Virus record (IMG/VR): IMGVR_UViG_3300042469_000981
Length of the DNA stretch: 64,000 nt
Direction: 5' to 3' (one strand)
From: a virus
Shown: positions 12,129 through 40,443 of the stretch, in pieces
Numbering within the stretch: position 1 is the stretch's first letter
Layout of the letters: each line of letters begins with the position of its first letter
The notes under the pieces: generated by a model
Database searches by the model: none
Told to the model about the DNA's origin: nothing
What the model saw: the letters and a program-made list of their open reading frames with translations, nothing else
Made by a program: the position numbers and the translations under genes

Positions 12129-12383
12129 TTATTTTTTACCTTTAAGCATCTGGATTGTTTTCTCTAGATATAGAGCTAAATCCATTGCTTCTTCTTTAGC
12201 ATGTTGTAGATAGTCTAATACAGATAAATCTGTTCTATCTAAAGTATTGTTATACTTGTTTTTACCCATCTCAGCCCTTTTAATATGCTCATCAATAACT
12301 GAGTCTACAATTGAGTCTGTTTCAATTATGGTTCTTGTTTTTGGATGTTCTCCTCTAAAACCTAAATCACTGTTTTTTGTCAT
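12129..12383 (-). CDS. putative all-alpha NTP pyrophosphohydrolase (MazG-like)
   Basis: GKNKYNNTLDR...LQHAKEEAMDLALYLEK carries an EExxD motif typical of MazG-like folds. Confidence 0.5.
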   Translation of the reverse strand: MTKNSDLGFRGEHPKTRTIIETDSIVDSVIDEHIKRAEMGKNKYNNTLDRTDLSVLDYLQHAKEEAMDLALYLEKTIQMLKGKK

Positions 12384-12799
12384 TGGATTTCTTTTAATAA
12401 CTTTTTAATTTCTTTTTCATCAATTCCTGATTTTTCAAGAATGTATTCTACTCCTTCTTTTTTAAGAATGTATAAATAATCCTCAGCCTCACCTAATGAT
12501 ATAGTGTAAAAATTAGCTACATGTTGTAGTAGTGAGTTGCTAGGCTTCTTTTTTGAAGTTTTGATGTATTTGAGGAAGACATTCTTTTTAGGTAACATAG
12601 AACAATAGTATTTATAAGTTTTTTCTTTATCAGGGTAGGGTATTCTTTGGCCAAAATTTGCAACCTCAGTGTATCCTTCATACATACTTACAAATCTATG
12701 AACCATATAAGAGTTAAATGACTCTTGCTGGTCTTCCGTAAAAGAAGACCAGGACGTTTTATTAGTGGTGATTTCTTTTAACCAATCAAATATCGTCAC
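12380..12799 (-). CDS. clamp loader small subunit (T4 gp62-like)
   Basis: FDWLKEIT, FNSYMVHRFVSM, LPKKNVFLKYIK pattern; near the clamp loader ATPase. Confidence 0.7.
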   Translation of the reverse strand: MTIFDWLKEITTNKTSWSSFTEDQQESFNSYMVHRFVSMYEGYTEVANFGQRIPYPDKEKTYKYYCSMLPKKNVFLKYIKTSKKKPSNSLLQHVANFYTISLGEAEDYLYILKKEGVEYILEKSGIDEKEIKKLLKEIQ

Positions 12800-13028: not shown

Positions 13029-13215
13029 TTTCTTTATGTTTTTTCCATTCTAAATAAAATCCTACAGCAACTAAGGTATTCATTCCAAATGATGCTATAA
13101 TTTCTTTAATATCATCATACACATTCATAGTTAGGTGAACATGACCTACCATCCAAAAAGGAACAGATAAGTTACTTGCTACCCAAAGTATAAAAAAGTG
13201 GATGAATTTTTTCAT
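13018..13215 (-). CDS. small membrane protein
   Basis: Two hydrophobic segments. Confidence 0.6.
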   Translation of the reverse strand: MKKFIHFFILWVASNLSVPFWMVGHVHLTMNVYDDIKEIIASFGMNTLVAVGFYLEWKKHKENEK

Positions 13216-14147
13216 ATTACTCTTTTACTTAAAATTAATGATAAAATTCTAGATATCAAAGCCATAATGTTTATTTCTTTATCAATTCTAAAATTAGCAT
13301 GGTATTGATATTCTTCAATATGAATAATAACTTCACCCATACTTGTAGGAGCATATTTATCTACATTATCAAATAAAAATCTAAATAATTCTTCAAAATC
13401 ATTAACACTAGAATCAGCTATAATCTGTCTAATGTTATTAAATGACTTTGTTGTTGGTTTGCATAATTCCATGAGTACTTGATTTTTGTAGTTACTAGAC
13501 ACTAATATATTTTTATCAATGACTACCTCATCACCTGTTACACCCATTTGAAGTGTATTAAGCATTTTACGTAGATCAGGATAAAATTGATTAATAACTA
13601 GTTTTAAGTCCTCAGCTCCCATCCCAACATTCTCTTTTTTAAGAATGTCTATAATATGATAAGCAATATCTTGTTTTGATGGAGGTACAATTTTAAGTAC
13701 CTGGCAGCGTGATTGAAGAGGATCAATAATACGCTCAACATAATTACAAGTTAAGATAAATCTTGTAGTACGGGCAAATGTTTCAATAATGTTTCTTAAT
13801 GATGCTTGTGCTTGGATTGTAAGAAAATCTGCTTCATCCAAGATAACAACTTTAAGAGGTTTAAACGAGGCCACAGATGAGAAGCCCTGGACCTTATCCC
13901 TAATAGTATCAATACCACGCTCATCGGAAGCGTTAATATAGAGATAATCGCAATTGAGATTATTAACAATAAGTTTAGCAAGAGTAGTTTTACCGGTACC
14001 AGCAGGGCCGTAGAAAATAAAATTTTGAATATCATTCTGTTCTAGATACTTTGAAATAGTACCTTTAATTTGTTCATTTCCTACATATGTAGAAAGATTT
14101 TGAGAACGATATTTCTCAACCCAAAGTGTATGTTGCTTAGAACTCAT
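13212..14147 (-). CDS. clamp loader AAA+ subunit (RFC small / T4 gp44-like)
   Basis: LWVEKYR, GPAGTGKTT, INASDERGID, VILDEAD, LQSRC; likely start MSSKQ at 14147. Confidence 0.95.
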   Translation of the reverse strand: MSSKQHTLWVEKYRSQNLSTYVGNEQIKGTISKYLEQNDIQNFIFYGPAGTGKTTLAKLIVNNLNCDYLYINASDERGIDTIRDKVQGFSSVASFKPLKVVILDEADFLTIQAQASLRNIIETFARTTRFILTCNYVERIIDPLQSRCQVLKIVPPSKQDIAYHIIDILKKENVGMGAEDLKLVINQFYPDLRKMLNTLQMGVTGDEVVIDKNILVSSNYKNQVLMELCKPTTKSFNNIRQIIADSSVNDFEELFRFLFDNVDKYAPTSMGEVIIHIEEYQYHANFRIDKEINIMALISRILSLILSKRVI

Positions 14148-14403
14148 AGTCTCCGTATATTGAATATTTTTTAGGTTCTGGTTCTTTAATTTCAACCTCA
14201 TCACTTACAATAGCATATAATTTTCCTGCTGTTAGATCTAATCTAAATGCTTTAGGTTTAACTACAGCTACTTGATACCAAGCCTCTAGAGCATCTGTAA
14301 TAGACTTTTGAACCTCATTAACATTACTCATCTTCCAATTGTCACCTGGAGGGACACGAGAACCAATCTCGATTAGTTTTTCTTGTATTTCTATTTTGCT
14401 CAT
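14137..14403 (-). CDS. hypothetical protein
   Basis: Intact ORF in operon context. Confidence 0.65.
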   Translation of the reverse strand: MSKIEIQEKLIEIGSRVPPGDNWKMSNVNEVQKSITDALEAWYQVAVVKPKAFRLDLTAGKLYAIVSDEVEIKEPEPKKYSIYGDYEF

Positions 14404-14598: not shown

Positions 14599-16212
14599 TT
14601 ACATCATTCCCATCATGTTGCCAAACCCTTCATCACCTTTCTTTTCTTCTGGTTTGTCAACAATAACAGCTTCTGTTAATAAGATAGTACCAGCCACTGA
14701 AGCAGCGTTTTCGAGTGCTGTACGAGTTACTTTAGCTGGATCAATTACTCCAATTTCTCTCATGTCATGAAAATCTTCATCAAACAAATTGAATCCGTAC
14801 CAATAATCACCTCCTGTTGCTCCTGATAATGCGTTGTAAATGTCTTCTAATTCATAACCAGCATTAGATAAAATTTTCTTAAATGGTTCAGCACAAACAT
14901 TATAAACAATTCTACCACCAATACTATTAAGATCACTAATACCATTTCGAGCATGTAACAAAGCCATTCCACCACCAGGTACAATACCTTCTTCTAAAGC
15001 AGCTTTAGTTGCTTGAAGAGCATCATCTACTCGATCTTTCTTTTCTTTCATTTCCGCTTCAGTAAACCCACCAACATGAACAACTGCTACACCACCAATA
15101 AACTTAGCCAAACGTTCTTGCAACTTTTCTTTTTCATATGGTGAAATTGCTTTTTCAATTTGATTGTGAAGTTCTTCAATACGGTCTGTGATTTTGTCTG
15201 ACTCACCTTTACCATCTACAATAGTAGTTTCATCTTTACCTACAGTCACAACACGAGCTTGACCAAACCAATCCCAACTAAACTTATCCAACTTCATACC
15301 TTTTTCAGTACTGAATACTTGTCCACCAGTCAAGATAGCAATGTCTTCAAGAATTAGTTTACGACGGTCTCCAAAATCAGGAGCCTTAACAGCTACAACT
15401 TTCAAAATACCTCTTGCTTTGTTTACAATCAAAGTAGCAAGCGCTTCACCATCTACATCTTCAGCAATAATAACTAAAGGTTTATTTTGGTTAGATACAG
15501 CTTCTAAAATAGGCAACAACTCTTTTACTTGAGTAAATTTCTTGTCTGCGATCAAAATCAAAGCATCTTGTAAAGTAGTAGTCATTGAATTGTTATCAGT
15601 TACAAAGTAAGGTGATTTGTAACCTCTATCAAACTGCATACCTTCTACTGTTTCAAGATATGTTTCACCGTTTTTAGATTCTTCAATGAATACAACACCT
15701 TCACGACCTACTTTTTGCATCGCTGTAGCAATTAATTCACCTACTTCTGGATCGTTGTTTGCTGAAATTGTAGCGATTTGTTTAAGTTGTTCCTCATTTG
15801 AAATATCTTCTTTAATTTCATGACGGAGATGTTCAATTACTTCTTTTACTGCTTTATCAATACTACGTTTAATCTCAACAGCATTTTCACCATGGTTAAG
15901 ATATTTAAGACCTTGTTTAGCCATTTCACGAGCCAACAAAGTAGATGTTGTAGTACCATCACCAGCATTATCAGCAGTTTTAATAGCTGCTTGTTTAACT
16001 AATTGTACTCCCAATTCTTCAATTGGATCTTCTAATGTGATTGATTTAGCTACTGTGACACCATCTTTAGTGCTTTGAGGAATACCTCCATTAGCAATAA
16101 CTACGTTACGTCCATTAGGACCTAAAGTGGCTGTAACAGCATCAGCTAGTTTATCAATACCACTAATCATTTTTTCCCTTGCTTCGGGACCGAATTCTAT
16201 AACTTTGCTCAT
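14599..16212 (-). CDS. groL: chaperonin GroEL
   Basis: [49 protein letters not shown]; Gly/Met-rich tail. Confidence 0.98.
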
Positions 16213-16213
16213 A

Positions 16214-16504
16214 TTAATCTTTATTTACTTTAGCTAAAACTTGATTTTCAGGACCCAGCCAATATTCTTGACCTTCATATTCCATTTTACTAAAACCCAT
16301 TGTAGGCAATACAACTGTATCTCCTACACTCAGCATAGTAGGAATAAAAGTTCCTGTAGCTGAATAGTAACCTTTTCCAACTGCTACTACTTCTCCTAGT
16401 TTGTTTTTCTCATTCCCCAAGTCAGGGACAATAATGCCTCCATATGACGTCTCTTCAGACTCAACAGGCTTAACGATAACTGAATTATAAATTGCTTCTA
16501 ACAT
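16214..16504 (-). CDS. groS: co-chaperonin GroES
   Basis: VIVKP, TSYGGIIVPD mobile loop, GEVVAVGKG, VGDTVV; directly upstream of groL. Confidence 0.95.
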   Translation of the reverse strand: MLEAIYNSVIVKPVESEETSYGGIIVPDLGNEKNKLGEVVAVGKGYYSATGTFIPTMLSVGDTVVLPTMGFSKMEYEGQEYWLGPENQVLAKVNKD

Positions 16505-16803: not shown

Positions 16804-16835
16804 TTAATATAACATTCTTTTTTTATTGTTCCAAA
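16804..16835 (-). promoter_or_regulatory. early/middle-type promoter motif
   Basis: TTTGGA-N18-TATATTAA upstream of the hypothetical-groS-groL genes. Confidence 0.65.
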
Positions 16836-17056
16836 CTTTCTTCAATAAGTGGTTGTTCATCTTCAATCACTTCAGCCTCTTCTATTAAACGAACAAACCA
16901 AAACATTCCATCTTTTCTAAATACATTAGTTGTATTTGTATAACCTTTAAATAAATTTGTATCAATTCCTGTGTGTTCAGGAATTACTCTAATGATGTGA
17001 TACAAGTCATCTTTGATAGTAATTAATGGTATACCCATATTATAGTTCTTTAGCAA
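16823..17056 (-). CDS. hypothetical protein
   Basis: Intact ORF in operon context. Confidence 0.6.
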   Translation of the reverse strand: MLKNYNMGIPLITIKDDLYHIIRVIPEHTGIDTNLFKGYTNTTNVFRKDGMFWFVRLIEEAEVIEDEQPLIEESLEQ

Positions 17057-17780
17057 TTACATAATACTCACTTTTGATACTTCCATTGTCAAATGCTAGT
17101 CTCATAATTCCATCTAAATTAATTTCCATAGTACAATTAGCAACATCTTTATTACAGTACATGATTTCTTTAATTAAATTAGAATTATAATGAGCTTTAA
17201 ATTCATTAGGTAAATTATTAGTAGTAATATCTGGTAAGTAAAAAGATACCTTATTTGAGTATTCAATGTTACCTCCAAACATCATTTCCAATTGTAAATC
17301 ACCATCAGCGTTTATAAACGGCTTAAATACAACTGTATCAGTGTCTGCGAGTGCTGATTTTGCTTTGATTATAGCGTTTATACTTTCATTATCTAACGTG
17401 GCTTCAATATTGTATACACCATCACCAACATACTCTCCAGCCTTAGGAATAATCATATTATCAGCTAAAGCATAATTAAGAGTAAATTGATTATCAGCTA
17501 CAATAAGTTTAGTAATTAACTTATGTTGTCTTATATAACTTAAATCTAAATAACCATTTGTAATAGATAATAATTTAAGTAATTGAGATGTATTACTGAT
17601 TGAAATTGTTGCATCTTCTAATTCAAAATCATCACATGTTACTGTTCCGATCATTGAATTGTCAGGGGAATTGAATTTAATAATTAATTTACTATCTTGA
17701 ATGTCCCACTTAACTTTTTCATTCATTCCATTCAAGTAATACTTGGAAATAATTGAAACTAAATCTAATTTATTAATCAT
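17040..17780 (-). CDS. DNA polymerase sliding clamp (gp45/PCNA-like)
   Basis: Size about 250 aa, alternating beta/alpha pattern, directly downstream of PolB and near the clamp loader. Confidence 0.7.
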   Translation of the reverse strand: MINKLDLVSIISKYYLNGMNEKVKWDIQDSKLIIKFNSPDNSMIGTVTCDDFELEDATISISNTSQLLKLLSITNGYLDLSYIRQHKLITKLIVADNQFTLNYALADNMIIPKAGEYVGDGVYNIEATLDNESINAIIKAKSALADTDTVVFKPFINADGDLQLEMMFGGNIEYSNKVSFYLPDITTNNLPNEFKAHYNSNLIKEIMYCNKDVANCTMEINLDGIMRLAFDNGSIKSEYYVIAKEL

Positions 17781-27078: not shown

Positions 27079-27290
27079 ATAATTTCTTCTTCTTTAACTA
27101 ATTCAGCTCCAAAATTTTCCTCTAGGAGACGAGAGGTATTTTCTTTAAATAATGGTTTGGCTTGAGACCAATCATAAGACCATTGAATAGATCCTTTGAT
27201 TAGTCCCGTAAATACCTCACCATGCTTATTAACCACAACATACATTTGTGGGTACGGTCCTGATTTTCTATACTGTCTTTTCGTAATCAT
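27075..27290 (-). CDS. hypothetical protein
   Basis: Intact ORF in operon context. Confidence 0.55.
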   Translation of the reverse strand: MITKRQYRKSGPYPQMYVVVNKHGEVFTGLIKGSIQWSYDWSQAKPLFKENTSRLLEENFGAELVKEEEII

Positions 27291-28155
27291 CTAATACTGA
27301 AGATACGTACTCTTTTACATATTCCCAAGTTACTGGTCCAAATTCATCAGCATAGTTTACAGGATCTTTTTTACCTAACTTAAGAAATGCTTCTACACGT
27401 TCAACTGATGATGCTGATTTATAATCTGAAAACCATTCTGGTGATGGGTTTCCATAATTATCAAACACTAAATGAATCATTGGTTTGTAACTTGTGTTTG
27501 TACGGCTATAAACCTCATCAAAATCAATGCCTAGTTGTTCACAACATAATTCACCATCTTTTAAAATAGAAAATTTATTTCCTTCCATATACGGAACATA
27601 ATAATTTACTAAATGTGAATCCCAGTTACCTGTTTTAAACGCTACTTCATCTGCTTTTCTCCATTCATCTGTACAATCAGGATAAACTGAATGGTCACCA
27701 CTATGTACGCCTAAAGCAATAACACATTCTGTGTTTTTAGAATTAGCAATAGATAAAGCTACAGCTTGAGTAATAGATGAAAAGATTTTATTACGATTAG
27801 GAACTACAGTTGCCTTCATATTTTCTTCAGCATAGTGACCTTCAGGTACTTCATCTCCTCCGGTTACAAGTGCTGAATTAAGTAATTGGGACAAACCATC
27901 TAATTTAATTACTTGATAATTAATTTTTGGAAAATGATGCATGATAACTTCTGTTGTATCATTTTTGTACTTAGTTTCATCAGCTTTACTATTTAAATAG
28001 TTAACTAAATCTTGAGCACGTTCAAGTTCAACTGAGTGTTTTTGCCCATAATCAAAGGATAGTGCTGTAACTTCATAACCATTGGCGAGTAGATGAAGCA
28101 GCAAGGTAGAGCTATCCATTCCTCCACTTAGTGATAATACTGCTTGTTTTGTCAT
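27268..28155 (-). CDS. queC: 7-cyano-7-deazaguanine synthase-like PP-loop ATPase (lacks canonical Zn cysteines)
   Basis: SLSGGMDSST, DYGQKH, VVPNRN, YPDC; C-terminal TNTSY...SDYKSASSVER replaces TxxCY...CGxCxxCxxR. Confidence 0.9.
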   Translation of the reverse strand: MTKQAVLSLSGGMDSSTLLLHLLANGYEVTALSFDYGQKHSVELERAQDLVNYLNSKADETKYKNDTTEVIMHHFPKINYQVIKLDGLSQLLNSALVTGGDEVPEGHYAEENMKATVVPNRNKIFSSITQAVALSIANSKNTECVIALGVHSGDHSVYPDCTDEWRKADEVAFKTGNWDSHLVNYYVPYMEGNKFSILKDGELCCEQLGIDFDEVYSRTNTSYKPMIHLVFDNYGNPSPEWFSDYKSASSVERVEAFLKLGKKDPVNYADEFGPVTWEYVKEYVSSVLDDYEKTV

Positions 28156-30475: not shown

Positions 30476-30507
30476 TAAATATAACATCAAAATCTAACAA
30501 GGCCAAA
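30476..30507 (-). promoter_or_regulatory. early/middle-type promoter motif heading the deazaguanine operon
   Basis: TTTGGC-N18-TATATTTA. Confidence 0.75.
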
Positions 30508-30514
30508 CAAGAGA

Positions 30515-31744
30515 TTAAAAATAAGTTATAGTATTATCATCTTTTTTAGACTGGAATTGTTTTGTTAGTAAGTCTTTTAGATTACTTACTTCATTTAAAA
30601 CTTTTTCTTTTTTCCAGTTTTCAGCTGTAGTAAAACTATTAGTTACATCTTCTAGTTTATTAATAGCTTCCATATACTGATTAAGTTGTTGAGTGTCTTT
30701 TATGTTTAGGTTAGCTGCTTTAGCTTCTTCCTCATCTATAATCCCATCATCATTAGTATCTGCTTTATCAAATACTTCTTTAAGTTCTTCTTCCTCAACA
30801 ATACCATCTCCATCTAAATCTAATTTATTTTTATAATATTCTTTATCTTTTTCTTTATAGATTTCATATTGTTTTTCTTCTTCCTCTAAAATATCATTTT
30901 CACCTAACTCAGCTTCTAACCATTCTTTATCTTCATCTGTTAGTTTGTTTATAGGTGTCTTACGTAATTGAGCAAATGCAAAGTTAGCGGCTATAACAAG
31001 AGCAATAGCTAATGGATCAAATACAAATATAATAACTAATATATACCAGTTAATGATTCGGTCCATAGTAACACCAGTAAGAGCACTTAAATATTTTAAA
31101 GGACCTAACTCACTAGTCGCTGTAGCATTAGTTTTAACTTCTAATATTTTAGACTCAATTGAAAAAATAGAGTCATTTATTATATCTAATTTAGAAGATA
31201 ATTTATCATCTGATTTAGAGGCATTCTCAATTTGTTTAATAGAAGCATTGTTAGATCTTACTACTAAATTACCTTTACGATCTGTAAATTGGGTTGTTGA
31301 TCCTTTAGATAAGCTACCTTTTAATTCAGATAAGGATTGTTTTTCTTGTAAAATACCTGCTCTAGTATTTTCATATAATTTCTTTTTAGTTTCTAAAGAT
31401 GCTACTCTAGAATCAACAATACTAGTTTGGTCAGCTGTTTTTTGGTAAGCTGAAGATAAATAACCATAGATACCCGCTGATGTAATTAATATTAAAATAA
31501 CAGCTGCTATAGTTAAATAAATTCTTAGTATTTTATTTAATTTATTCCAGTATTGATATAATAAAGAGGCAATTACTAATTTAGATATCTCTAAAGAAGA
31601 GGCCATAATCATCACAGCAGTACTAGCCCCAGCAAATAACATGCTGAGACCAGTAATACTATAAACGGCTGCGGACGCACTTACTGATAGTGCTGAAAGA
31701 GCAATTATGAATGGGAATACTCTTTCTTTGATTTTTTCAAACAT
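30515..31744 (-). CDS. multi-pass membrane protein with coiled coil and EF-hand pair
   Basis: Three N-terminal hydrophobic segments, one more after a coiled coil; DLDGDGIVEEEE and DTNDDGIIDEEE 12-residue EF loops. Confidence 0.75.
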   Translation of the reverse strand: MFEKIKERVFPFIIALSALSVSASAAVYSITGLSMLFAGASTAVMIMASSLEISKLVIASLLYQYWNKLNKILRIYLTIAAVILILITSAGIYGYLSSAYQKTADQTSIVDSRVASLETKKKLYENTRAGILQEKQSLSELKGSLSKGSTTQFTDRKGNLVVRSNNASIKQIENASKSDDKLSSKLDIINDSIFSIESKILEVKTNATATSELGPLKYLSALTGVTMDRIINWYILVIIFVFDPLAIALVIAANFAFAQLRKTPINKLTDEDKEWLEAELGENDILEEEEKQYEIYKEKDKEYYKNKLDLDGDGIVEEEELKEVFDKADTNDDGIIDEEEAKAANLNIKDTQQLNQYMEAINKLEDVTNSFTTAENWKKEKVLNEVSNLKDLLTKQFQSKKDDNTITYF

Positions 31745-31963: not shown

Positions 31964-33820
31964 TTACACTATTTCACAAGCACCTCCAGCACAAGCTGCT
32001 TGATCCATCAATGCTGTGTTATCAGTCATCTCAATTACTTTGGATAAATCTACTTGATGTAATGATTTTACTGCCTCATTAAATTGTTCCTCAGTAATTG
32101 TTTCATAAGGAGCTTGCTTATAAGTACCTAAATCTTCAGGTAAGAATGAAAGTGCGGTAAAGTATTCTTTGTTTTCATAAAGCCATTCTCCAACAGTACC
32201 CCATTCATCTTGTTTAATAGTTACTGTAGCTGATACGTTGTGCATATTAGCACCTTTTCTATGACCTGGTTTGATCCAATTTTTATTAATTGTTTTAATG
32301 CGTTCTAACATATCCATAGCTGATTCTTTACGTGTGATTGAACCTTCTGGAGCACGTTGAGGAACAGAAACAATTGATTGTAATGTTGGTTTAAAGAAAT
32401 CATCTTCCAACATTTCAGGATGGTACATACTTAAGTAAGCATAAAGTGCTTCATTTTTACCTAAACGAATACGGCGAATATAATAATCATCATGCCAAGC
32501 GTGAATGCCTGAACTTGTACCTAGTACTAATGAAGTGGTACCTGAAGGTTTAACTGTAGTGACACGAGCTGCTTTATTAATACCTAATACTTTAGCTAAA
32601 CGTTCATTTTCATCACATGCTACCTTAGCTGCTTCTTTCATATTTAATTTAAATACAGCCCCTGAAGCAATACCTGTCATTCCAATACCTAACAATGCTT
32701 CTTTTTCAGTTGTTTTTCTCCAAACATCTCTCAAATAATGAAAGTCAGTATATGAGGCTTGTAGTGTACCAATAAATGCTGCTGCTTTAGCTCTTGAGTT
32801 ATATTCTTCTTGTGTTTCAATATCTGAAGCATTAATTTCGCACAAGTTACAGAATTGATTAGCTTTCAAGTTAATTTCAGCGCATGGGTTAGTACCAGCA
32901 TCTTTATCATTTGTAAATAAGAAACCTGGTTCACCACTGTTAGATGCTTCAATTTTACCCCACAAGTTCATAAATGTTTCTTTATCAATCATGTTACGAA
33001 GTAATACTGCTGAGTTATTAGCACGGCCACGTTGTGGATTATTTTCCCACCAGTTACCAAACTTACAAGTTAACATATTCTCATCATGTAGGTTAAATAA
33101 AGCAATTAAAGCAGCCCTACGAATACCTCCGGATAACACAGCATCAGCTAAGTGACAAATAATGTCATGACATTCTACTGTTGTTAATTTTTCACCATCT
33201 TGTTTACGGTCTAAAATAGCTTGCATATGAATTAAAGCAATTTTCAATGGTTCAGGACCTGGTGCTTTACCACCTACTGTAATCAATGAAGCACCTTTAG
33301 CTCTAATGTCTCTAAAGTCAAATAGAGGAGCAGTTGATGTGTAACCAAAATAAGCTTTAGTCAACATACGAACAGCATCAGCCCATCCTTCAATAGAATC
33401 ACCTACTAGATAACGCTTTGATTTCAAAGGTTTTCTAATTTCAGGTAATTGTTCTACATGGTGGGTTTGAACTGAGTATCCAACTCCACAACCTGAAAGT
33501 AACAAAAACATAATTTCAGAAAATGCTCTGTAATCATCAATTGGTAAATATGAACAGTTAAAAATACGAGCGTTGTTTATTTCAATAGGCTTACCAGCAA
33601 ATTGCATTGAACGCATAGATGGTAGTACTTTTTTGTCATAAACAAACTTGTAAGCGGCTTCAATTTCTTCAGCCAATTCAGGAAATTTCTTCAAGTGCAT
33701 TTCCTTGTTTCGAGTTACTAGCTCGTCCCATGTCTCTCTCCTGTTTTTGTCAGGTACGAATTTCGCGTATTTGAGGTGGGTAGTGATTTCAGACAAAATT
33801 TGTGATTCTGTAGTTAACAT
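31964..33820 (-). CDS. nrdJ: class II (adenosylcobalamin-dependent) ribonucleotide reductase
   Basis: IFNCSY, GCGVGYSV, GGIRRAA, GTNPCAEI, FCNLCE, TTVKPSGT, C-terminal CAGGAC; no beta-subunit gene nearby. Confidence 0.92.
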   Translation of the reverse strand: MLTTESQILSEITTHLKYAKFVPDKNRRETWDELVTRNKEMHLKKFPELAEEIEAAYKFVYDKKVLPSMRSMQFAGKPIEINNARIFNCSYLPIDDYRAFSEIMFLLLSGCGVGYSVQTHHVEQLPEIRKPLKSKRYLVGDSIEGWADAVRMLTKAYFGYTSTAPLFDFRDIRAKGASLITVGGKAPGPEPLKIALIHMQAILDRKQDGEKLTTVECHDIICHLADAVLSGGIRRAALIALFNLHDENMLTCKFGNWWENNPQRGRANNSAVLLRNMIDKETFMNLWGKIEASNSGEPGFLFTNDKDAGTNPCAEINLKANQFCNLCEINASDIETQEEYNSRAKAAAFIGTLQASYTDFHYLRDVWRKTTEKEALLGIGMTGIASGAVFKLNMKEAAKVACDENERLAKVLGINKAARVTTVKPSGTTSLVLGTSSGIHAWHDDYYIRRIRLGKNEALYAYLSMYHPEMLEDDFFKPTLQSIVSVPQRAPEGSITRKESAMDMLERIKTINKNWIKPGHRKGANMHNVSATVTIKQDEWGTVGEWLYENKEYFTALSFLPEDLGTYKQAPYETITEEQFNEAVKSLHQVDLSKVIEMTDNTALMDQAACAGGACEIV

Positions 33821-33838: not shown

Positions 33839-35200
33839 TTAGTTAGATAGTTCGAAAAATCTTTGTTTAATAAGTGCCTTGTCTGATGAATCTATACCTC
33901 CAAAAGTATTAGATTTTTGTGGTGAAGATGATTCTTCGTCTTCTTCTAAATAGGATGATACCTCAAAATGCCCTGTTGAGGTATCTACTTTGACAGAATA
34001 GGTCATACCGTCCATTCCGTATCGATTTTTCATAATGTGAAATCTTCCTGTCCCATTTACTTTATCTTGACGTTTCCTTGATAAGGATATAGCAACATCA
34101 GTAACCATCATTTTATCATAGCTACCTGCTGCTTTATCACCCTCAATAATATCATCTTTTGCACCAGCGCGGTTTACTTGAGATACACTCCAAATAGGTA
34201 GATTTAATTCTCTAGCAAGACCCTTAGTACTAATATAAATATCATCTATTTCATCCTTACGCTCACGATTATTTTTCTTTGAACGAAGAAGATCTACATA
34301 GTCAATAATAATTAGGTCTGGTTTAAAATCTAGATCAATACATTTTTTAATATGTGATTCAATAGTTGATATAGATGCTTTGCCGGTTGGATATTCTTTA
34401 ATAATCAATTGACCTTCCAACTGATTGACTACATCTTCAATTTTAGTTTTATATTTTGTAATATCTTGAACTGATATGTTAGTGAAGAAAGCGTCATATC
34501 TTCGTCCTACATAATCAGCTCCTAATTCTAAAGTATAATGTAAAACATTATAACCTAACTTAACAGCATAACCACCTAAAGCAACTAGTGACCAAGATTT
34601 ACCACCACCTGGACTACCAAATATTAATCCGAAGTCACCATTACCTAAGCCACCTTGAAGTAGTTCATTAAATGATTCCCAAGGTGTAGGAACAATTTTT
34701 CTATGGTCTTCTCTATATCTTGATTCAACATCTTTATTATATTCATGACCCATATTTTTGTCTCCACCTGCTTTAAGTGCATTGTCAATCATTGATCTAA
34801 TTGAATCATAATCTCCAGCATTAAGAAAATCTACACTTGTTAACAATGCTTTTTTAAGCTGTTGGTTTTTACAAAAATTAGAAAATTCTTCCTCAACATA
34901 CTTAAGATCTTCATCTGATGCTTTATATGCTTCTCTTAATTGTTCTTTAATAGATACTTGTAAAACTTCATTATCAATTTTTTTAAGTTCTACTTTAAGA
35001 ACATCCATACTTGGAGTAGTATGATATTTTTGATAATATTTTAGGATTTCTTTAATAATCCAACGGTGTGCTGTGTTGTCAAAGTATTCTTCACTTAACA
35101 CATCTTGAATGTTCAATAGAAATTCTTTATGTGTTAAAAGTGAAGACAGTACTTTAACCTGGAATCCTATTCCGTATTGTGAAAGATTTTGTAATGTCAT
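33839..35200 (-). CDS. replicative DNA helicase (DnaB/gp41-like)
   Basis: GSPGGGKS, HYTLEL, IIIDYVDLL, WSVSQVNR, KNRYG. Confidence 0.93.
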   Translation of the reverse strand: MTLQNLSQYGIGFQVKVLSSLLTHKEFLLNIQDVLSEEYFDNTAHRWIIKEILKYYQKYHTTPSMDVLKVELKKIDNEVLQVSIKEQLREAYKASDEDLKYVEEEFSNFCKNQQLKKALLTSVDFLNAGDYDSIRSMIDNALKAGGDKNMGHEYNKDVESRYREDHRKIVPTPWESFNELLQGGLGNGDFGLIFGSPGGGKSWSLVALGGYAVKLGYNVLHYTLELGADYVGRRYDAFFTNISVQDITKYKTKIEDVVNQLEGQLIIKEYPTGKASISTIESHIKKCIDLDFKPDLIIIDYVDLLRSKKNNRERKDEIDDIYISTKGLARELNLPIWSVSQVNRAGAKDDIIEGDKAAGSYDKMMVTDVAISLSRKRQDKVNGTGRFHIMKNRYGMDGMTYSVKVDTSTGHFEVSSYLEEDEESSSPQKSNTFGGIDSSDKALIKQRFFELSN

Positions 35201-35205
35201 ATAAC

Positions 35206-36261
35206 TTATTTTTTAAAACTGTTTATTACTTTAAATGTATTGGTAATTGTTAATTCAGGATCTTTCATTAGTTTATTTAATCCATCTTCATTATAAAGTA
35301 ACATAAATGCTTTGGTATTCAAAGCTGGAGGTAATTCTTCTGAGAATTCTTCTAGGTATTGTTTTTCTACTTCATCAACTAGTGGTTTTCCTAAATCCAT
35401 AATTTTATAATTATTTCTTAATCGATCCTCATCTTGAAGTACTCGAGCGTAAATAACATGCTCTTTTAATTTTGATTCGGCAATGCCCATTAAGTCATCA
35501 AAAGACAGAGGGCGTTCAAGTAATTCAGGAAACTTTTTAGTAACACCTTTTTTACCTAAACCTTTAATACCCTCTACTTTATCTGAATTATCACCTAACA
35601 GTGTTTTGTATAAAATAAAATTTTCAGCTAATACACCATAATTGCTCTTAATCATTTCTTTGGTATAAAATTCTTTTTCAGCTGGTCTATATACTGTTAT
35701 TTTATTGTTTACTAATTGAATAAAATCTTGGTCATTAGATACAATGAATACCTTAGAACCATGTTTAGTAGACAATATATCACTTAAATAGGCGATAATA
35801 TCATCAGCTTCTACCTTATTCATACTAACTGTTTTAACAGGTAAGCATTTTAAATAATGAATTAACCTAACAGTTTGGTTAACCTTAGAATCATGTTCCT
35901 CTTCTAGTGAATCAAAAACGTCCCAGTTAGTGATTCGAACTAAGTTCCTACCTGATTTGTACTCAGGTAATAGATTCTTTCTGTTTATAGAAGAACCAGC
36001 TCCATCAAATACAACATATACAGAAGTTGGTTGTAATTGATTTACTAAGTAATTTAATGAGCGTAAAAAACCTCCTAGGCCACCAACATGCGCTCCATCT
36101 TGGTTAACCATCTTCATCATAGCAAAATTTCTAAAAAACAAATTCAACCCATCAATAAGCAATACTCGCTCATGAGGGTTTGTTAGTACTTCATCTTCTT
36201 TGGTTACTTTGCCTAGAAGGTTTATCAAGTCGCTCTTTTTCATGTTATTTAAATATAACAA
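35206..36261 (-). CDS. 5'-3' exonuclease / flap endonuclease (T4 RNase H-like)
   Basis: LLIDGLN, VVFDG, YKSGR, VEADDII, SNDQDFIQL, LLGDNSDKVEGIKGLG. Confidence 0.93.
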   Translation of the reverse strand: MLYLNNMKKSDLINLLGKVTKEDEVLTNPHERVLLIDGLNLFFRNFAMMKMVNQDGAHVGGLGGFLRSLNYLVNQLQPTSVYVVFDGAGSSINRKNLLPEYKSGRNLVRITNWDVFDSLEEEHDSKVNQTVRLIHYLKCLPVKTVSMNKVEADDIIAYLSDILSTKHGSKVFIVSNDQDFIQLVNNKITVYRPAEKEFYTKEMIKSNYGVLAENFILYKTLLGDNSDKVEGIKGLGKKGVTKKFPELLERPLSFDDLMGIAESKLKEHVIYARVLQDEDRLRNNYKIMDLGKPLVDEVEKQYLEEFSEELPPALNTKAFMLLYNEDGLNKLMKDPELTITNTFKVINSFKK

Positions 36262-36281
36262 ATTTTCTTAAATAGGCCAAA
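36250..36281 (-). promoter_or_regulatory. early/middle-type promoter motif
   Basis: TTTGGC-N18-TATATTTA. Confidence 0.7.
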
Positions 36282-36282
36282 C

Positions 36283-37377
36283 TTATTCCCCATCCATTAA
36301 GTCTAGAGGAATATCTCTGGTTGATTCATTCCAATCTGATGAATCTTCGATTACTTCAAACTTTCCATCTCCTAGAATGTCTTTCCATTCCATAGAATGT
36401 GCTTTCTTGTAAGTATCAATTTCTTTTTTATCGTCCTGAATAAAACCATGAATAGTAGCGATTACAACACTTTTTGTTTGTAATCCTGTAACGTGGTTCT
36501 TATCACATGACACTTTAGTTCTTACAGCAAATTCTACTTCTTTACCGTCTTTAGTTGCTTTAATTTTACTTGTACCACTATTAGTAATGTTACCAAAAGT
36601 TAATACAATAGAAGCATCCAAAAACATAGTCTCACCATTTTTCATCTTCATTTTAGGTTGTGCCATAATATTTTCAGCTGGTGCAACCCAGATCTTATTA
36701 ATAGCTACCATTGAATTAGTGAATGGTGCGTTTTCTTTTCTAGATAAAGGGAAACGTTGATTAATAAAGTTACCAAATTGTTGAGACATAGCTCCTGCGT
36801 TCCACATAGGATTGTTTTTATTTGCTTCAACACTCATTTTACAAGGTATTGAACCAATTGAATCCCAGAAGAAACACAAGTCATAAGGCAAATTACCTTT
36901 TTTCTGTTCATCCAACAAATCAGCAATAAATTCAGCTACGTCTTCAATAGTACCTAACGATGATCTATCTTTATAAATAAAGAATCCATCATGGTCAACT
37001 ACTTCTCCTGTAGTTTCATCAACTACATCATTAAGTTGGAAACCCATTGTACGAGCGTGTTCCCAGGACCATTTCATTTCAGTAATAATAAAAACAGGTA
37101 AGATACCCATTTTTTGAGCGCTAATTGCTAACTCAAGTAATGCTGTAGTCTTACCTGTATTACTGTGTCCTCTTAATAATGTGATGTGACCTACTGGAGC
37201 ACCAGCTACAGAAATTGAATCTTGTAGTGCTTTTGAGAATGGGATCCATTTTTGTTCTTTAAACTTAACAGTTCCATTCAATAATTTCTTCTCCTTGAAT
37301 TTCTCAAGGTTGAAGTTTGATTTAATCTCTGTAGAGATTGCTTCCGTTAGCGATTCGCTTTTTTTAGGTCTTGGCAT
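36283..37377 (-). CDS. RecA/UvsX-like recombinase
   Basis: GHSNTGKT Walker A, FFWDSIGS Walker B, MVAINKIW; adjacent to SSB. Confidence 0.85.
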   Translation of the reverse strand: MPRPKKSESLTEAISTEIKSNFNLEKFKEKKLLNGTVKFKEQKWIPFSKALQDSISVAGAPVGHITLLRGHSNTGKTTALLELAISAQKMGILPVFIITEMKWSWEHARTMGFQLNDVVDETTGEVVDHDGFFIYKDRSSLGTIEDVAEFIADLLDEQKKGNLPYDLCFFWDSIGSIPCKMSVEANKNNPMWNAGAMSQQFGNFINQRFPLSRKENAPFTNSMVAINKIWVAPAENIMAQPKMKMKNGETMFLDASIVLTFGNITNSGTSKIKATKDGKEVEFAVRTKVSCDKNHVTGLQTKSVVIATIHGFIQDDKKEIDTYKKAHSMEWKDILGDGKFEVIEDSSDWNESTRDIPLDLMDGE

Positions 37378-37395: not shown

Positions 37396-38235
37396 TTAGA
37401 ACGGCAAATCATTACTTTCATCTTCGTCTTCAAACAAAGAATCAAATTGATCAGCTTTGTTGGCTTTAGGAGCCATAGGTGTTTTTAAAGCATAAGCTTT
37501 AACTGGAGCTACTTCTACTACTGCTTCTTCTTCATCCTCATCTACATCTCCAGAAGCATCTTCAGGTGACAACCAATTTTGCAATACTTCTTTTAAAGCA
37601 TCAAATTCCATTTTTCTTTGAATTTCTAACAATACGGGTTGTTCTTTAAGGAATGTCTGGATTAATGAAGCATCAGAACTTAATGCAGTTGTTTTAGGTT
37701 TAATACGAATTGATGATTTAAGACCTTGACGACCACCAATGTCACCTTTAACTACATCAACGGTAAAGTCTCTACCATCATTGATGTCTGTGTAGTCTCC
37801 ATAATCTTCATCTTCAGCAATACCTAAAAGTTGCATGTAAATTTCTTTACCAAATTCCCAAAGGCGTACTCCTTTTTCTTCCTCACCACGTACAATTACA
37901 GGAGCAAAAACTCTCATTTTTGGGTCTAATTTCTTAGCCAATACCCAGTTTTCACGATCATTGGTTTTACGAAGTTGAGCAGCAAATTCTACAATCGGGT
38001 CTTTTTCATCCCAGTTAGTTAAGGCGTAGATAGGAAATTTTGAAAATCCATAGTGAACAAAAACCTCTTGAAATGGGTTTTTAGGATTCAATTTAGAAGG
38101 AACAATACGAATTTGGTACTTTCCTTCTTCTTTTGGTTTCCAGTAAACTTTTGAGTAATCAATTTTTTCTTTCTTGCCTGTGTTGTTCGTCGACTGTAAT
38201 GAATTTAGTCGTTGTTTGATTGATGCAATATCCAT
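37396..38235 (-). CDS. single-stranded DNA-binding protein (T4 gp32-like)
   Basis: YWKPKEEGKYQIRIVP, VRLWEFGK, DINDGRDFTV; acidic tail ending DLPF. Confidence 0.85.
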   Translation of the reverse strand: MDIASIKQRLNSLQSTNNTGKKEKIDYSKVYWKPKEEGKYQIRIVPSKLNPKNPFQEVFVHYGFSKFPIYALTNWDEKDPIVEFAAQLRKTNDRENWVLAKKLDPKMRVFAPVIVRGEEEKGVRLWEFGKEIYMQLLGIAEDEDYGDYTDINDGRDFTVDVVKGDIGGRQGLKSSIRIKPKTTALSSDASLIQTFLKEQPVLLEIQRKMEFDALKEVLQNWLSPEDASGDVDEDEEEAVVEVAPVKAYALKTPMAPKANKADQFDSLFEDEDESNDLPF

Positions 38236-38261: not shown

Positions 38262-38293
38262 GAAATATATGAACGAGGTATTGTATAACCAAG
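38262..38293 (-). promoter_or_regulatory. early/middle-type promoter motif for SSB
   Basis: CTTGGT-N18-TATATTTC. Confidence 0.6.
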
Positions 38294-38300
38294 TTAAGGT

Positions 38301-38321
38301 GGGCCCTCTTTTGAAGGGCCC
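38301..38321. terminator. GC-rich intergenic hairpin
   Basis: 7-bp stem GGGCCCT/AGGGCCC; T tract is on the plus-strand side, so orientation is uncertain. Confidence 0.45.
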
Positions 38322-38339
38322 GTATTTTATTTTTATTTA

Positions 38340-38634: not shown

Positions 38635-38666
38635 TAAATATAACAAAGAAATCCTAAATTGCCAAA
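38635..38666 (-). promoter_or_regulatory. early/middle-type promoter motif
   Basis: TTTGGC-N18-TATATTTA. Confidence 0.7.
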
Positions 38667-38674
38667 CCGGTTTT

Positions 38675-39133
38675 TTACAATTCAACAATCTTATAAACTT
38701 TTGTATTCAATTGTTTCAACTCATTATGGTTGGTTAACAAAATACAGTTTTTATAGTGCTGCCAGTTTACACGGTAAGATGGGTCAACCACTCCTCCGTT
38801 TAACTTTTTTATCAAATCATTCAACGCATTAATAGTATAAAGCGTATTGGTTTCTTTTTTTCTATGTACTAAAATAGTATTCAATGGAATACCTTCTACA
38901 TTACCCTGCTCTACATTATAAGTAATAACATATTCATCTGTACTTTTAACATACAAAACAAACATCTTATTATACATAATAGAATAAGCTCTTGTCAGAT
39001 CATTAATTAAATCATCTAAGCTTTCTAAAGTAGTAAATGTACAAAATAACTTATTATTCACGTCGCGTATGGTGGTTAAATCAAAATCGTATCCACTATA
39101 CATATGTTTATCCTCTTGTAAAATCATAGTCAT
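38675..39133 (-). CDS. hypothetical protein
   Basis: Intact ORF overlapping the end of the PolA-like gene. Confidence 0.7.
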   Translation of the reverse strand: MTMILQEDKHMYSGYDFDLTTIRDVNNKLFCTFTTLESLDDLINDLTRAYSIMYNKMFVLYVKSTDEYVITYNVEQGNVEGIPLNTILVHRKKETNTLYTINALNDLIKKLNGGVVDPSYRVNWQHYKNCILLTNHNELKQLNTKVYKIVEL

Positions 39134-40397
39134 AACCTTTTTTAGTTTTTGTAATTAATTTATATTTTTCAAATACTTTATTTATCTCAAGTTCAATACC
39201 TTCTTCCTTATCTCCTAGTTCAAACAAAAAACTATCATAAGTATATAACACTATCTTAGTTTTCTTACCCCTTAATAACTTATGTATATCCATTAATATC
39301 CTAGTATTAATAGCTGTTTCTATGTTTTGCAACATATAGTTAAAAAGTTTTTGTGGATTCATATTTTCCAGCTTATCCTTTTCAAAGCAATAACCTGAAA
39401 TTGGTACAGTAACTTGACCGGAGTTATTAAACGCCTCCCAATTTATTGCTACAAATTCTTTTACTTTCTTAAAAAATTCCAGATGCTCATACTCTTTAAA
39501 TACACCACCATAGAGTTGTTTAAAAGTGATTTCTTTTGCTTCTTGATAACTGGTTTGGTAGAGGTCTGCAAACGCCTGGTGGACATCTGAAACGCCAAAA
39601 TCATAGGTAAGTAAGCGACCGACAATAGTAGGATGATATGCGCTAATATCGAACTCAACAAATCCATGACTCGATATGTAGCTTCTCCTTGAGCCATCTT
39701 CTTTATTTATTGCTGCGAAATTAACACCATTAAAAGAGTTACTTGGTCTACGGGTTGTTGTAGCCAAATTGTAACTTGTGTAGATCCTATCATCTTGGAT
39801 AGAATAAAATTCTTGATTGAGTTCATAGTGTTTATCAAATTCATATTTATCTATTTTTAATCCGTTTTTTTCAATACCAAAGAATGCTAATACTACCTTG
39901 CTGTTATAAAAATCAAACCAATCGGGTAGTTCCTTAGGTAAAACACTACGAACGTGACTATAAATATGTTCACACTTCTCATAGTGCTTAGTTACCGGTA
40001 TTAGTTTATTGGTTTCTTTATATGTAGGATATTTGGAGTAAAAGTAATTATATACTTTAGGTGGATCTTGTATATACGGAGGAGTGAGTTGGGATAGGTC
40101 GCACAAGCATTTTAATGGAAAATAATATAATGCCTGTTTTTTATCTTGTACCCATACTCGTTCTATTTTTTGTAGTATAGCGTTTATTAACGTTTTATTA
40201 AGCGAGGCTGTTTCGCTATGCGAAACACATAACATATAGCCTTTAGTGTCGTTAAACGGCCTAATATAAACTAATGATATATTATTTAAGGCAGGATGAA
40301 CATTATCATGGTAAGGAATAATTTCAACAAAAGCTTCCTTAATTACTTTTTGTTGTAATACCTCTAAATCTTTATCTGTCTCAATTAGCCAAAACAT
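39108..40397 (-). CDS. short divergent family A DNA polymerase
   Basis: IEKNGLKID, TTRRPS, motif A FVEFDISAYH, motif B AKEITFKQLYG, NYMLQ, motif C LYTYDSFLFE. Confidence 0.8.
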   Translation of the reverse strand: MFWLIETDKDLEVLQQKVIKEAFVEIIPYHDNVHPALNNISLVYIRPFNDTKGYMLCVSHSETASLNKTLINAILQKIERVWVQDKKQALYYFPLKCLCDLSQLTPPYIQDPPKVYNYFYSKYPTYKETNKLIPVTKHYEKCEHIYSHVRSVLPKELPDWFDFYNSKVVLAFFGIEKNGLKIDKYEFDKHYELNQEFYSIQDDRIYTSYNLATTTRRPSNSFNGVNFAAINKEDGSRRSYISSHGFVEFDISAYHPTIVGRLLTYDFGVSDVHQAFADLYQTSYQEAKEITFKQLYGGVFKEYEHLEFFKKVKEFVAINWEAFNNSGQVTVPISGYCFEKDKLENMNPQKLFNYMLQNIETAINTRILMDIHKLLRGKKTKIVLYTYDSFLFELGDKEEGIELEINKVFEKYKLITKTKKGYDYDFTRG

Positions 40398-40411
40398 AAC
40401 CTTTATTGATA

Positions 40412-40443
40412 TTAATATAACATCAATATATTATACAACCAAA
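40412..40443 (-). promoter_or_regulatory. early/middle-type promoter motif for the PolA-like gene
   Basis: TTTGGT-N18-TATATTAA. Confidence 0.65.

Follow-up and report, generated by a model that had tools for sequence, protein, structure and literature searches.

Why should a phage that encodes a regular family B DNA polymerase (PolB) also keep a second, compact DNA polymerase that has lost its thumb? The question is raised by a gene in a 64,000-nucleotide stretch of IMG/VR virus record IMGVR_UViG_3300042469_000981. This stretch, here called the window, has ~30% G+C, carries nearly all of its genes on the minus strand and sits within a 135.8-kb viral record with an estimated completeness of 83%. 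Family A enzymes are the best-understood DNA polymerases, and their thumb is taken as essential for holding the product duplex. A sequence-only reading of the window had suggested that the gene encodes a thumbless family A enzyme, acting either as a distributive specialist or as one half of a two-subunit polymerase. Here, we find that the protein belongs to the divPolA1 class of phage polymerases, that its thumb hairpin is deleted as a whole and that its gene is coupled to that of a small, highly conserved partner. We propose that the two proteins probably constitute a distributive, non-proofreading, two-subunit auxiliary DNA polymerase for short-patch synthesis on single-stranded DNA (ssDNA) coated with an ssDNA-binding protein (SSB). 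The two genes are as follows.

39108..40397, minus strand: divPolA1-type compact family A DNA polymerase, 429 aa (open reading frame (ORF), family profile, AlphaFold2 model, homology)
38675..39133, minus strand: gene for the partner, an orphan alpha/beta protein of 152 aa and 17.8 kDa, with a 26-nt overlap between its start and the end of the polymerase gene

A miniaturised family A polymerase of the divPolA1 class

Several lines of evidence identify the polymerase. First, while the single sequence had no match in Pfam, PHROGs or the PDB sequence set, a profile of 80 family members with 30-94% identity (A1) matched the Klenow fragment at an expectation value (E) of 9e-9 and, at 3e-7 to 1e-4, the large fragments of the Bst and Taq enzymes. 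In hhalign, the probability against residues 324-928 of E. coli DNA polymerase I (Pol I) was 95.6%, and 34 of the 80 members have a match of their own to Pfam DNA_pol_A (PF00476; best E 1.5e-15). Second, the AlphaFold2 model of the 50.6-kDa protein (mean predicted local distance difference test score (pLDDT) 95.6, predicted template modelling score 0.92) has only A-family polymerases as its top Foldseek matches (E about 1e-16 to 1e-13), with E 1.5e-16 to 5e-15 against the apicoplast, mycobacterial and E. coli Pol I enzymes. VIA-align places residues 1-427 on residues 300-876 of the Bst large fragment (Z 26, root-mean-square deviation 3.6-3.9, ~397 residues aligned), and the 50 best structural matches are all DNA polymerases; Pol theta and Pol nu, which are A-family translesion enzymes, are among the fold matches. 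According to the model, the entire Klenow architecture, including the scaffold of the exonuclease domain, is thus present in ~175 fewer residues. Third, the protein is 38.2% identical over 94% coverage (E 7e-81) to gene 1 of Flavobacterium phage immuto_3-5A, annotated as 'DNA polymerase family A', and the A1 profile scores the divPolA1 homologue at E 3e-162. Gene 1 of immuto_3-5A is the type member of divPolA1, which was named by computation in Yutin et al. 2024 (Virol J 21:200; PMC11348598). The window polymerase is therefore a divPolA1 member, and this kind of enzyme, published in 2024, is not itself new.

In the account of Yutin et al. (PMC11348598), divPolA1 occurs in 14 phages of 155-190 kb; its thumb is truncated, all three exonuclease aspartates are replaced and the palm residues are kept. 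A conserved set of replication genes lies downstream; elsewhere, beside GroEL/GroES and nucleotide-modification genes, the phages encode a regular polymerase, which may belong to family A, B or C. The window fits this description throughout, in the thumb, in the palm, in a PolB gene beside GroEL/GroES and nucleotide genes, and in the downstream genes for gp32, UvsX, the flap exonuclease (FEN) and DnaB. Compared with the 14 genomes of that study, the family as collected here falls into 4199 clusters when grouped at 90% identity; at 50%, it has 1024 representatives, of which 415 lie below E 1e-30. It is plentiful in aquatic metagenomes and extends to a cyanophage of Microcystis and to a 484-kb phage. 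Length is uniform, with nearly all members at 410-455 aa, and a search for fused forms found no relatives longer than 752 aa. A thumbless group is absent from the 19 subfamilies into which PolA was divided in 2023.

The gene is under purifying selection, with a ratio of nonsynonymous to synonymous substitution rates (dN/dS) of 0.14-0.23 against five relatives (Nei-Gojobori method). Because the ORF is intact and dN/dS is in this range, it is not a decaying gene; the sequence-only reading had named a decaying pseudogene as an outcome that would count against it, and neither the ORF nor the dN/dS of ~0.15 points to one.

Loss of the thumb and changes in the active site

The following segments of the polymerase are needed for the comparison with Pol I.

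39933..40397, minus strand: N-terminal domain, aa 1-155, which takes the place of the 3'-5' exonuclease domain (the protein matches the Klenow/Bst large fragment in structure over its whole length)
39804..39848, minus strand: thumb stump, aa 184-198, in place of a ~100-residue helical hairpin in Pol I (alignment, model, residue count)
39741..39755, minus strand: TRRPS, equivalent of Pol I TGRLS (alignments)
39633..39650, minus strand: motif A, DISAYH (hidden Markov model (HMM) and HH alignments, conservation)
39507..39548, minus strand: motif B / O-helix, including G297 (HMM and HH alignments, conservation)
39231..39245, minus strand: motif C, YTYDS (HMM and HH alignments, conservation)

From D183 of EKNGLKID to T215 of the TGR equivalent, the window protein has 31 residues, compared with 117 between D548 and T666 of E. 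coli Pol I; the sequence-only reading had put these spans at 29 and roughly 110-120. Within 5 positions of the profile, the alignment moves on from residue 233 of the Klenow chain to residue 323 and so skips residues 234-322. A structure prediction of the polymerase alone, which had been suggested as a check, agrees: a 5-residue helix (184-188) is all that stands at the position of the thumb hairpin. Thus, the thumb is deleted, and with ~86 residues the whole hairpin is gone. Other parts are trimmed as well. The distance from the motif A Asp to the motif B Lys is 38 residues (53 in E. coli Pol I) and that from the motif B Lys to the motif C Asp is 100 (124 in Pol I), so that the fingers are ~15 and 24 residues shorter; from the start of the Klenow fragment to motif 1 there are 175 residues instead of 217. 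The segment equivalent to Pol I 684-692 has a 2-residue deletion and forms a helix of 4 residues (236-239).

Residue equivalences to Pol I were taken from HMM and HH alignments, which are ungapped through the motifs, and conservation was scored over the 80 family members.

R217 (Pol I R668): conserved in 100%
D250 (Pol I D705): conserved in 100%
H255 (Pol I E710, steric gate): His in 96% (77/80), otherwise Gln (3/80)
Y284 (Pol I R754): Tyr in 65%, Arg in 10%
K288 (Pol I K758): conserved in 100%
F292 (Pol I F762): Phe in 91%
Y296 (Pol I Y766): conserved in 97%
N353 (Pol I N845): conserved in 79%
Q357 (Pol I Q849): conserved in 100%
Y387 (Pol I H881): conserved in 97%
D388 (Pol I D882): conserved in 100%
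S389 (Pol I E883): Ser in 71%, Ala in 28%

R217, D250, K288, Q357 and D388 are invariant even at ~30% overall identity, and G297 of motif B is at least 91% conserved. These values bear out what the sequence-only reading had seen in a single protein, namely that both catalytic Asp residues and the Lys, Phe and Tyr of motif B are kept, that motif A carries a His where the sugar-gating Glu belongs and that motif C is altered to TYDS, with an invariant D388 between Y387 and a Ser or Ala. To these changes the alignments add the replacement of Arg754 by Tyr (Y284). Because the invariant residues serve metal binding, triphosphate binding and minor-groove reading, the protein is likely to be an active DNA-templated polymerase.

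The protein was also compared with the T7-type single-subunit RNA polymerases. These enzymes accept ribose with a Tyr at the position of Pol I F762, have a small residue at that of E710 and carry promoter-binding domains. In the family, this position (F292) is Phe in 91% and not Tyr, H255 is bulky, and the best structural matches are all DNA polymerases; this identity was therefore rejected.

The N-terminal domain has no conserved DxE on its first exonuclease strand, as judged by column conservation in the 80 members, in line with the earlier remark that clear exonuclease motifs are lacking. Together with the findings of Yutin et al. 2024, this suggests that the exonuclease-like domain is probably inactive. 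The domain instead has polar residues whose conservation is particular to the family (H34, H60, E/D62, K87, D100, N130, P134, K137 and E140); they are not the DEDD set and could form a metal site, a new active site or an interface with the partner.

A dedicated partner encoded by the next gene

The sequence-only reading had pointed to an overlapping downstream gene as a possible partner. The gene is present as described, and the coupling extends far beyond the window. We inspected 80 divPolA1 loci, 78 of which have room downstream; in 76 of these 78, a partner homologue is the next gene after the polymerase, with an overlap mostly of 20-35 nt. Because the internal Met11 of the partner is replaced by Ile or Thr in several members, the upstream, overlapping start is the real start. 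The partner also persists in distant relatives. In the Microcystis phage Mel-JY01, a cyanophage, the polymerase is 28% identical and the partner (E 1e-33) overlaps it by 4 nt; in the 484-kb phage LR756508, the partner (E 5e-46) lies 1.5 kb downstream of the polymerase. In the same loci, partner identity is 58-87% compared with 45-78% for the polymerase; 38 partner columns are invariant, and the partner dN/dS of 0.02-0.09 indicates tighter constraint than on the polymerase. Coupling, persistence in distant relatives and tighter constraint together give the two-subunit part of the earlier proposal strong comparative support.

The AlphaFold2 model of the partner (pLDDT 81) has a disordered segment at residues 1-21 and an alpha/beta fold with a ferredoxin-like core at 23-92. 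The C-terminal half is net basic and includes an invariant HRKK stretch. The fold is otherwise an orphan. The partner profile had no match in the PDB, Foldseek against the PDB gave a best E of 0.07, and VIA against 48,161 chains gave generic ferredoxin-like matches with a best Z of 5.8. BFVD returned the family itself alone, and neither Pfam and PHROG scans of 38 members nor the ESM Atlas gave a match. An oligonucleotide/oligosaccharide-binding (OB) fold was considered for the partner and rejected, given the alpha/beta model with its ferredoxin-like core and the absence of OB folds among the top structural matches.

Seven partner relatives are of greater length, all of them single-member clusters, and some join neighbouring genes. 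In the metagenomic singletons P0272 and P0275, a single ORF covers the partner together with a C-terminal portion of the polymerase. These two may be natural fusions or frameshift errors in the overlap; we regard all the joined ORFs as potential artefacts of frameshift or assembly.

A promoter-bounded two-gene unit

By comparing the upstream regions of relatives, we found a promoter-like motif of the form TTGG-N19-TATATT, i.e., a -35-like TTGGnn, a 17-nt spacer and a TATATT -10 element that is often preceded by TGT. Two of its copies bound the polymerase and partner genes, and all copies in the window are on the minus strand.

40414..40442, minus strand: TTGGTT-N17-TATATT, ending 16 nt before the polymerase ATG
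38637..38665, minus strand: TTGGCA-N17-TATATT, the next promoter-like site, which closes the two-gene unit
1266-1294, 16806-16834, 20402-20430, 22828-22856, 24215-24243, 30478-30506, 36252-36280 and 38264-38292, minus strand: the remaining sites, which bring the total to 10

Against 1.73 expected, there are 10 copies, a number that none of 100 shuffles reached; they have fixed spacing, are all on the coding strand and each lies just upstream of a gene. The genes behind them, for replication and nucleotide metabolism among others, include those for divPolA1, a 95-aa ORF, gp32, the flap nuclease, PolB and FolE. Among 73 related loci, the motif precedes divPolA1 in 27 under strict and 44 under loose criteria, compared with 0.35 and 1.6 in shuffles. 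The suggestion that the polymerase has its own early-type promoter is thus supported by enrichment in the window and conservation in related loci. A generic sigma-70 scan missed the promoter upstream of the polymerase, and two other, guessed motifs were discarded after they showed no enrichment. Promoters of this class often read TGTTATATT.

With promoters at 40414-40442 and 38637-38665 as its bounds, the polymerase and the partner form a two-gene unit, and this arrangement shows them as predicted to be co-transcribed and translationally coupled. An inverted repeat, TATTGAT-N11-ATCAATA at 40405-40430, spans the -10 element and the polymerase leader and could be an operator or an mRNA hairpin.

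A fixed replication module and an exchangeable replicase

Downstream of the pair, the window encodes a replication module; the regular polymerase lies elsewhere.

37396-38235, minus strand: gp32-type SSB (Pfam/PHROG)
36283-37377, minus strand: UvsX-type recombinase (Pfam/PHROG)
35206-36261, minus strand: 5'-3' FEN (Pfam/PHROG)
33839-35200, minus strand: DnaB-type helicase (Pfam/PHROG)
17801..20395, minus strand: the regular PolB of the phage, 864 aa including an exonuclease domain; same promoter motif at 20402-20430
13212-14204 and 12380-12799: clamp loader, both subunits
14599-16212: GroEL, between clamp loader and PolB, a placement that Yutin et al. describe for this group of phages
16214-16504: GroES, between clamp loader and PolB
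23528-24202, 25373-26164 and 27268-28155: GTP cyclohydrolase (FolE), QueE-like protein and QueC, near PolB

The order polymerase, partner, gp32, UvsX, FEN, DnaB is kept in nearly all related loci and also in Immutovirus and Mel-JY01; an acidic 95-aa ORF occurs in only 5 of 80 loci. The regular polymerase varies, in agreement with Yutin et al. 2024. It is a PolB in the window phage, in related genome G004 and in Mel-JY01; Immutovirus has a regular 778-aa PolA and no PolB; and LR756508 (484 kb) has PolB-like ORFs and a PolC-type alpha subunit. In G001 and G003, PolB appears as two ORFs (~596/575 aa and 301/324 aa; G001:C1:93355-95419 and G003:C1:83541-85245), which may reflect a split PolB or an intervening element. 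Of the replication set that the sequence-only reading assigned to the window phage, PolB and both clamp-loader subunits are confirmed; the clamp is not, as its candidate at 17040-17780 had no PHROG match.

A proposed auxiliary two-subunit polymerase and its alternatives

Altogether, these findings support a model in which the pair probably acts as the auxiliary polymerase proposed above. The analysis shows the family and fold of the protein, its deletions and conserved residues, the coupling and synteny of the genes and the promoter, and from these we infer catalytic activity, complex formation and biological role. In the model, the protein is a miniaturised Klenow-fold enzyme in which the palm and the trimmed fingers keep the residues for templated dNTP addition, i.e., the two metal-binding Asp, the Lys, Phe and Tyr of the O-helix and the minor-groove readers equivalent to R668, Q849 and N845, while the exonuclease domain survives as a scaffold alone and the thumb hairpin is wholly deleted. 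Transcription would be driven by the gene's own early/replication-type promoter, and the partner would be translated together with the polymerase. The two proteins would then form a stoichiometric complex in which the partner supplies the DNA grip or the replisome tether that the thumbless enzyme is missing. By analogy with an engineered thumb truncation of Pol I, the polymerase alone is expected to be distributive and error-prone.

The pair heads the fixed module of SSB, UvsX recombinase, flap exonuclease and DnaB helicase and is kept whichever large replicase (A, B or C) is present. Because it is kept independently of the replicase type and in a fixed module, its job is most likely short-patch, non-proofread synthesis on SSB-coated ssDNA; probably, its role is not bulk replication. 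Such synthesis could be gap filling at the ends of Okazaki fragments with the flap nuclease, the extension of recombination intermediates, or damage tolerance. What stands of the earlier idea of a distributive specialist is a second, thumbless polymerase without a conserved exonuclease site beside a complete PolB; the options named for it of primer synthesis and of ribonucleotide or modified-dNTP use are weakened, as set out below. More tentatively, as a possible but not the expected case, the proteins may form an obligate heterodimer in which the 17-kDa alpha/beta partner, not described before, takes over from the missing thumb or brings in a new activity, for instance priming or the extension of D-loops.

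Several points weigh against the auxiliary-polymerase model. The changes R754 to Tyr, E883 to Ser or Ala and H881 to Tyr affect residues that are important in Pol I, and activity could be weak or altered. A physical interaction between polymerase and partner is suggested only by gene coupling and co-conservation, and the partner fold hints at DNA binding only through the net basic C-terminal half and HRKK. The searched literature holds no later divPolA1 paper and no biochemical work on family members. Finally, Immutovirus keeps the pair despite a full-size PolA that could fill gaps. This last observation suggests that the role is more specialised than generic gap filling and concerns a task that the normal replicase does poorly; therefore, lesion-bypass and primase-like readings stay alive.

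A translesion or damage-tolerance polymerase, i.e., an open, Y-family-like enzyme that copies UV-damaged DNA in sunlit waters, is in our view rather unlikely as the full account. The protein has neither a proofreading site nor a thumb, its fingers are shortened and its R754, E883 and H881 positions are altered; its gene adjoins those for recombinase and SSB, the family is abundant in aquatic metagenomes and Pol theta and Pol nu are among the fold matches. The minor-groove readers R217, Q357 and N353, however, are kept, which is typical of accurate A-family enzymes. This reading overlaps the auxiliary-polymerase model and does not exclude it.

We also consider it unlikely that the pair works as a primase-polymerase of two subunits in the manner of CCPol-MP from staphylococcal SCCmec (Bebel et al. 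2020 eLife; Rice 2023 Front Mol Biosci). There, a polymerase of family A acquires de novo DNA priming through a small partner, and the helix at Pol I 684-692 is shortened, which creates space for the initiating triphosphate. The window protein is likewise short at this segment and its partner is tightly coupled. The systems are also alike in a reduced thumb, a non-functional or partial exonuclease domain, a small partner encoded immediately downstream and a helicase in the module. By contrast, MP is an OB-fold SSB, whereas the window partner has a ferredoxin-like alpha/beta core (best Z 5.8) and no OB fold; CCPol keeps E710, whereas the divPolA1 family has His; and the CCPol thumb is shortened, whereas that of the window protein is deleted. 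The presence of other primases bears on this reading from both sides. In the phage's own record, searches with Pfam Toprim_2, Toprim_4, the DnaG zinc ribbon and Prim-Pol found no primase, and neither the Immutovirus primase protein nor a family-specific profile of four primase sequences matched any of its ORFs. However, ~17% of the genome is absent from this record, and the gene that neighbours the primase in relatives is missing from it too. Moreover, CCPol elements lack another primase, whereas relatives of the window phage have one: a DnaG/Toprim-type primase-like ORF of ~310-330 aa is found in Immutovirus, G001 (95% complete), G002, G005 and LR756508, with a weak match in Mel-JY01. With six related genomes thus provided for, one of them weakly, primer synthesis as a replacement for a primase loses ground. 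By analogy, CCPol-MP is nevertheless the closest mechanistic precedent we find for an A-family polymerase that, with a small partner, gains a new activity.

It is improbable that the enzyme is specialised for ribonucleotides or modified dNTPs, e.g., derivatives of 7-deaza-dGTP, with the gate His as the adaptation. Such a specialisation would account for H255 in place of the sugar-gating Glu in 96% of members. The window also encodes FolE, QueE and QueC near PolB, as well as a dCTP deaminase; the 7-deazaguanine pathway genes there suggest modified DNA, and QueC was found in 5 of 5 Immutovirus-like genomes checked. However, Mel-JY01 and LR756508, two complete genomes with the polymerase-partner pair, lack QueC, which weakens the link to 7-deazaguanine. 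Ribonucleotide use is weakened by F292, at which the Phe of DNA polymerases is kept and not the Tyr seen in T7-type RNA polymerases; since His and Glu are similar in bulk, the gate may still be closed; and CCPol primes with dNTPs while keeping the Glu.

Least probable are a catalytically inert scaffold, for which three changed catalysis-supporting residues of Pol I would speak and against which the metal-binding Asp, the O-helix Lys and Tyr and the R668/Q849 equivalents are retained across relatives at ~30% identity, and a true core replicase of the phage that uses the partner as its processivity factor, a reading that would fit the conserved replication context of the pair and a large polymerase that is swappable and lies among chaperonin and nucleotide-metabolism genes, whereas a thumbless, non-proofreading enzyme is unlikely to copy a genome of 135-190 kb and PolB adjoins the clamp-loader genes and has the same promoter type.

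Comparison with other polymerases and significance

T7 DNA polymerase needs a small accessory protein, thioredoxin, for its grip on DNA, and thioredoxin docks on an insertion in an intact thumb. In the window phage, by contrast, the thumb is absent and the partner is phage-encoded, and any likeness in the partner's possible role is an inference only. A Klenow fragment with a deletion at the tip of the thumb (Minnick et al. 1996, as cited in PMC10061031) is described there as able to polymerise, with lower DNA affinity, processivity and frameshift fidelity. As cited, that enzyme is an engineered partial truncation, whereas ~86 residues are absent here in a natural, conserved family. The divPolA2 proteins of barbaviruses (PMC11348598) are similar in being a second, divergent PolA beside a regular PolB, without a homologous thumb and without an active exonuclease. 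They differ in that their N-terminal globular domain is unrelated, their gene context varies and their structural matches are RNA-polymerase-like, whereas the window protein keeps the scaffold of the Klenow exonuclease domain and a fixed replication context.

The enzyme class is already published, and what is added here are the partner, the residue changes and the operon structure, which together define a testable two-protein system. The coupled partner, the steric-gate His, the replacement of Arg by Tyr in motif B and the promoter all go unmentioned in Yutin et al. 2024 (PMC11348598) and, as far as the searched literature shows, the partner, the active-site substitutions and the promoter-bounded bicistronic unit are undescribed. 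In a large natural family that is abundant in aquatic phages, the thumb has been dispensed with, the sugar gate has been changed and a dedicated partner has been retained, very strongly constrained. Should the pair prove to be an active heterodimer, it would represent a new way of building a polymerase, in a compact enzyme (50.6 + 17.8 kDa) whose substrate tolerance might be unusual. An obligate heterodimer of the kind outlined above would be a new subunit architecture for family A and the only fixed element of a replication module in which the large replicase swaps freely among families A, B and C. The pair would also offer a handle on why these phages can exchange their main replicase yet never lose the polymerase and its partner.

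Other features of the window

A strong G+C-rich hairpin, GGGCCCT...AGGGCCC, lies at 38299-38323 between the 95-aa ORF and the gp32 promoter and is not followed by a T-run on the coding strand; ahead of the SSB gene, it might act in termination, RNA stability or regulation. Downstream of DnaB, the window encodes a class II (B12-type) ribonucleotide reductase (31964-33820); in Immutovirus (L001 6895-9242), class I NrdF/NrdA occupy this place, i.e., a gene swap within a conserved module. Finally, 30515-31744 encodes a 409-aa protein with a weak, sub-threshold EF-hand-like match over ~24 residues (Pfam 22-24 bits against cut-offs of 25 bits).

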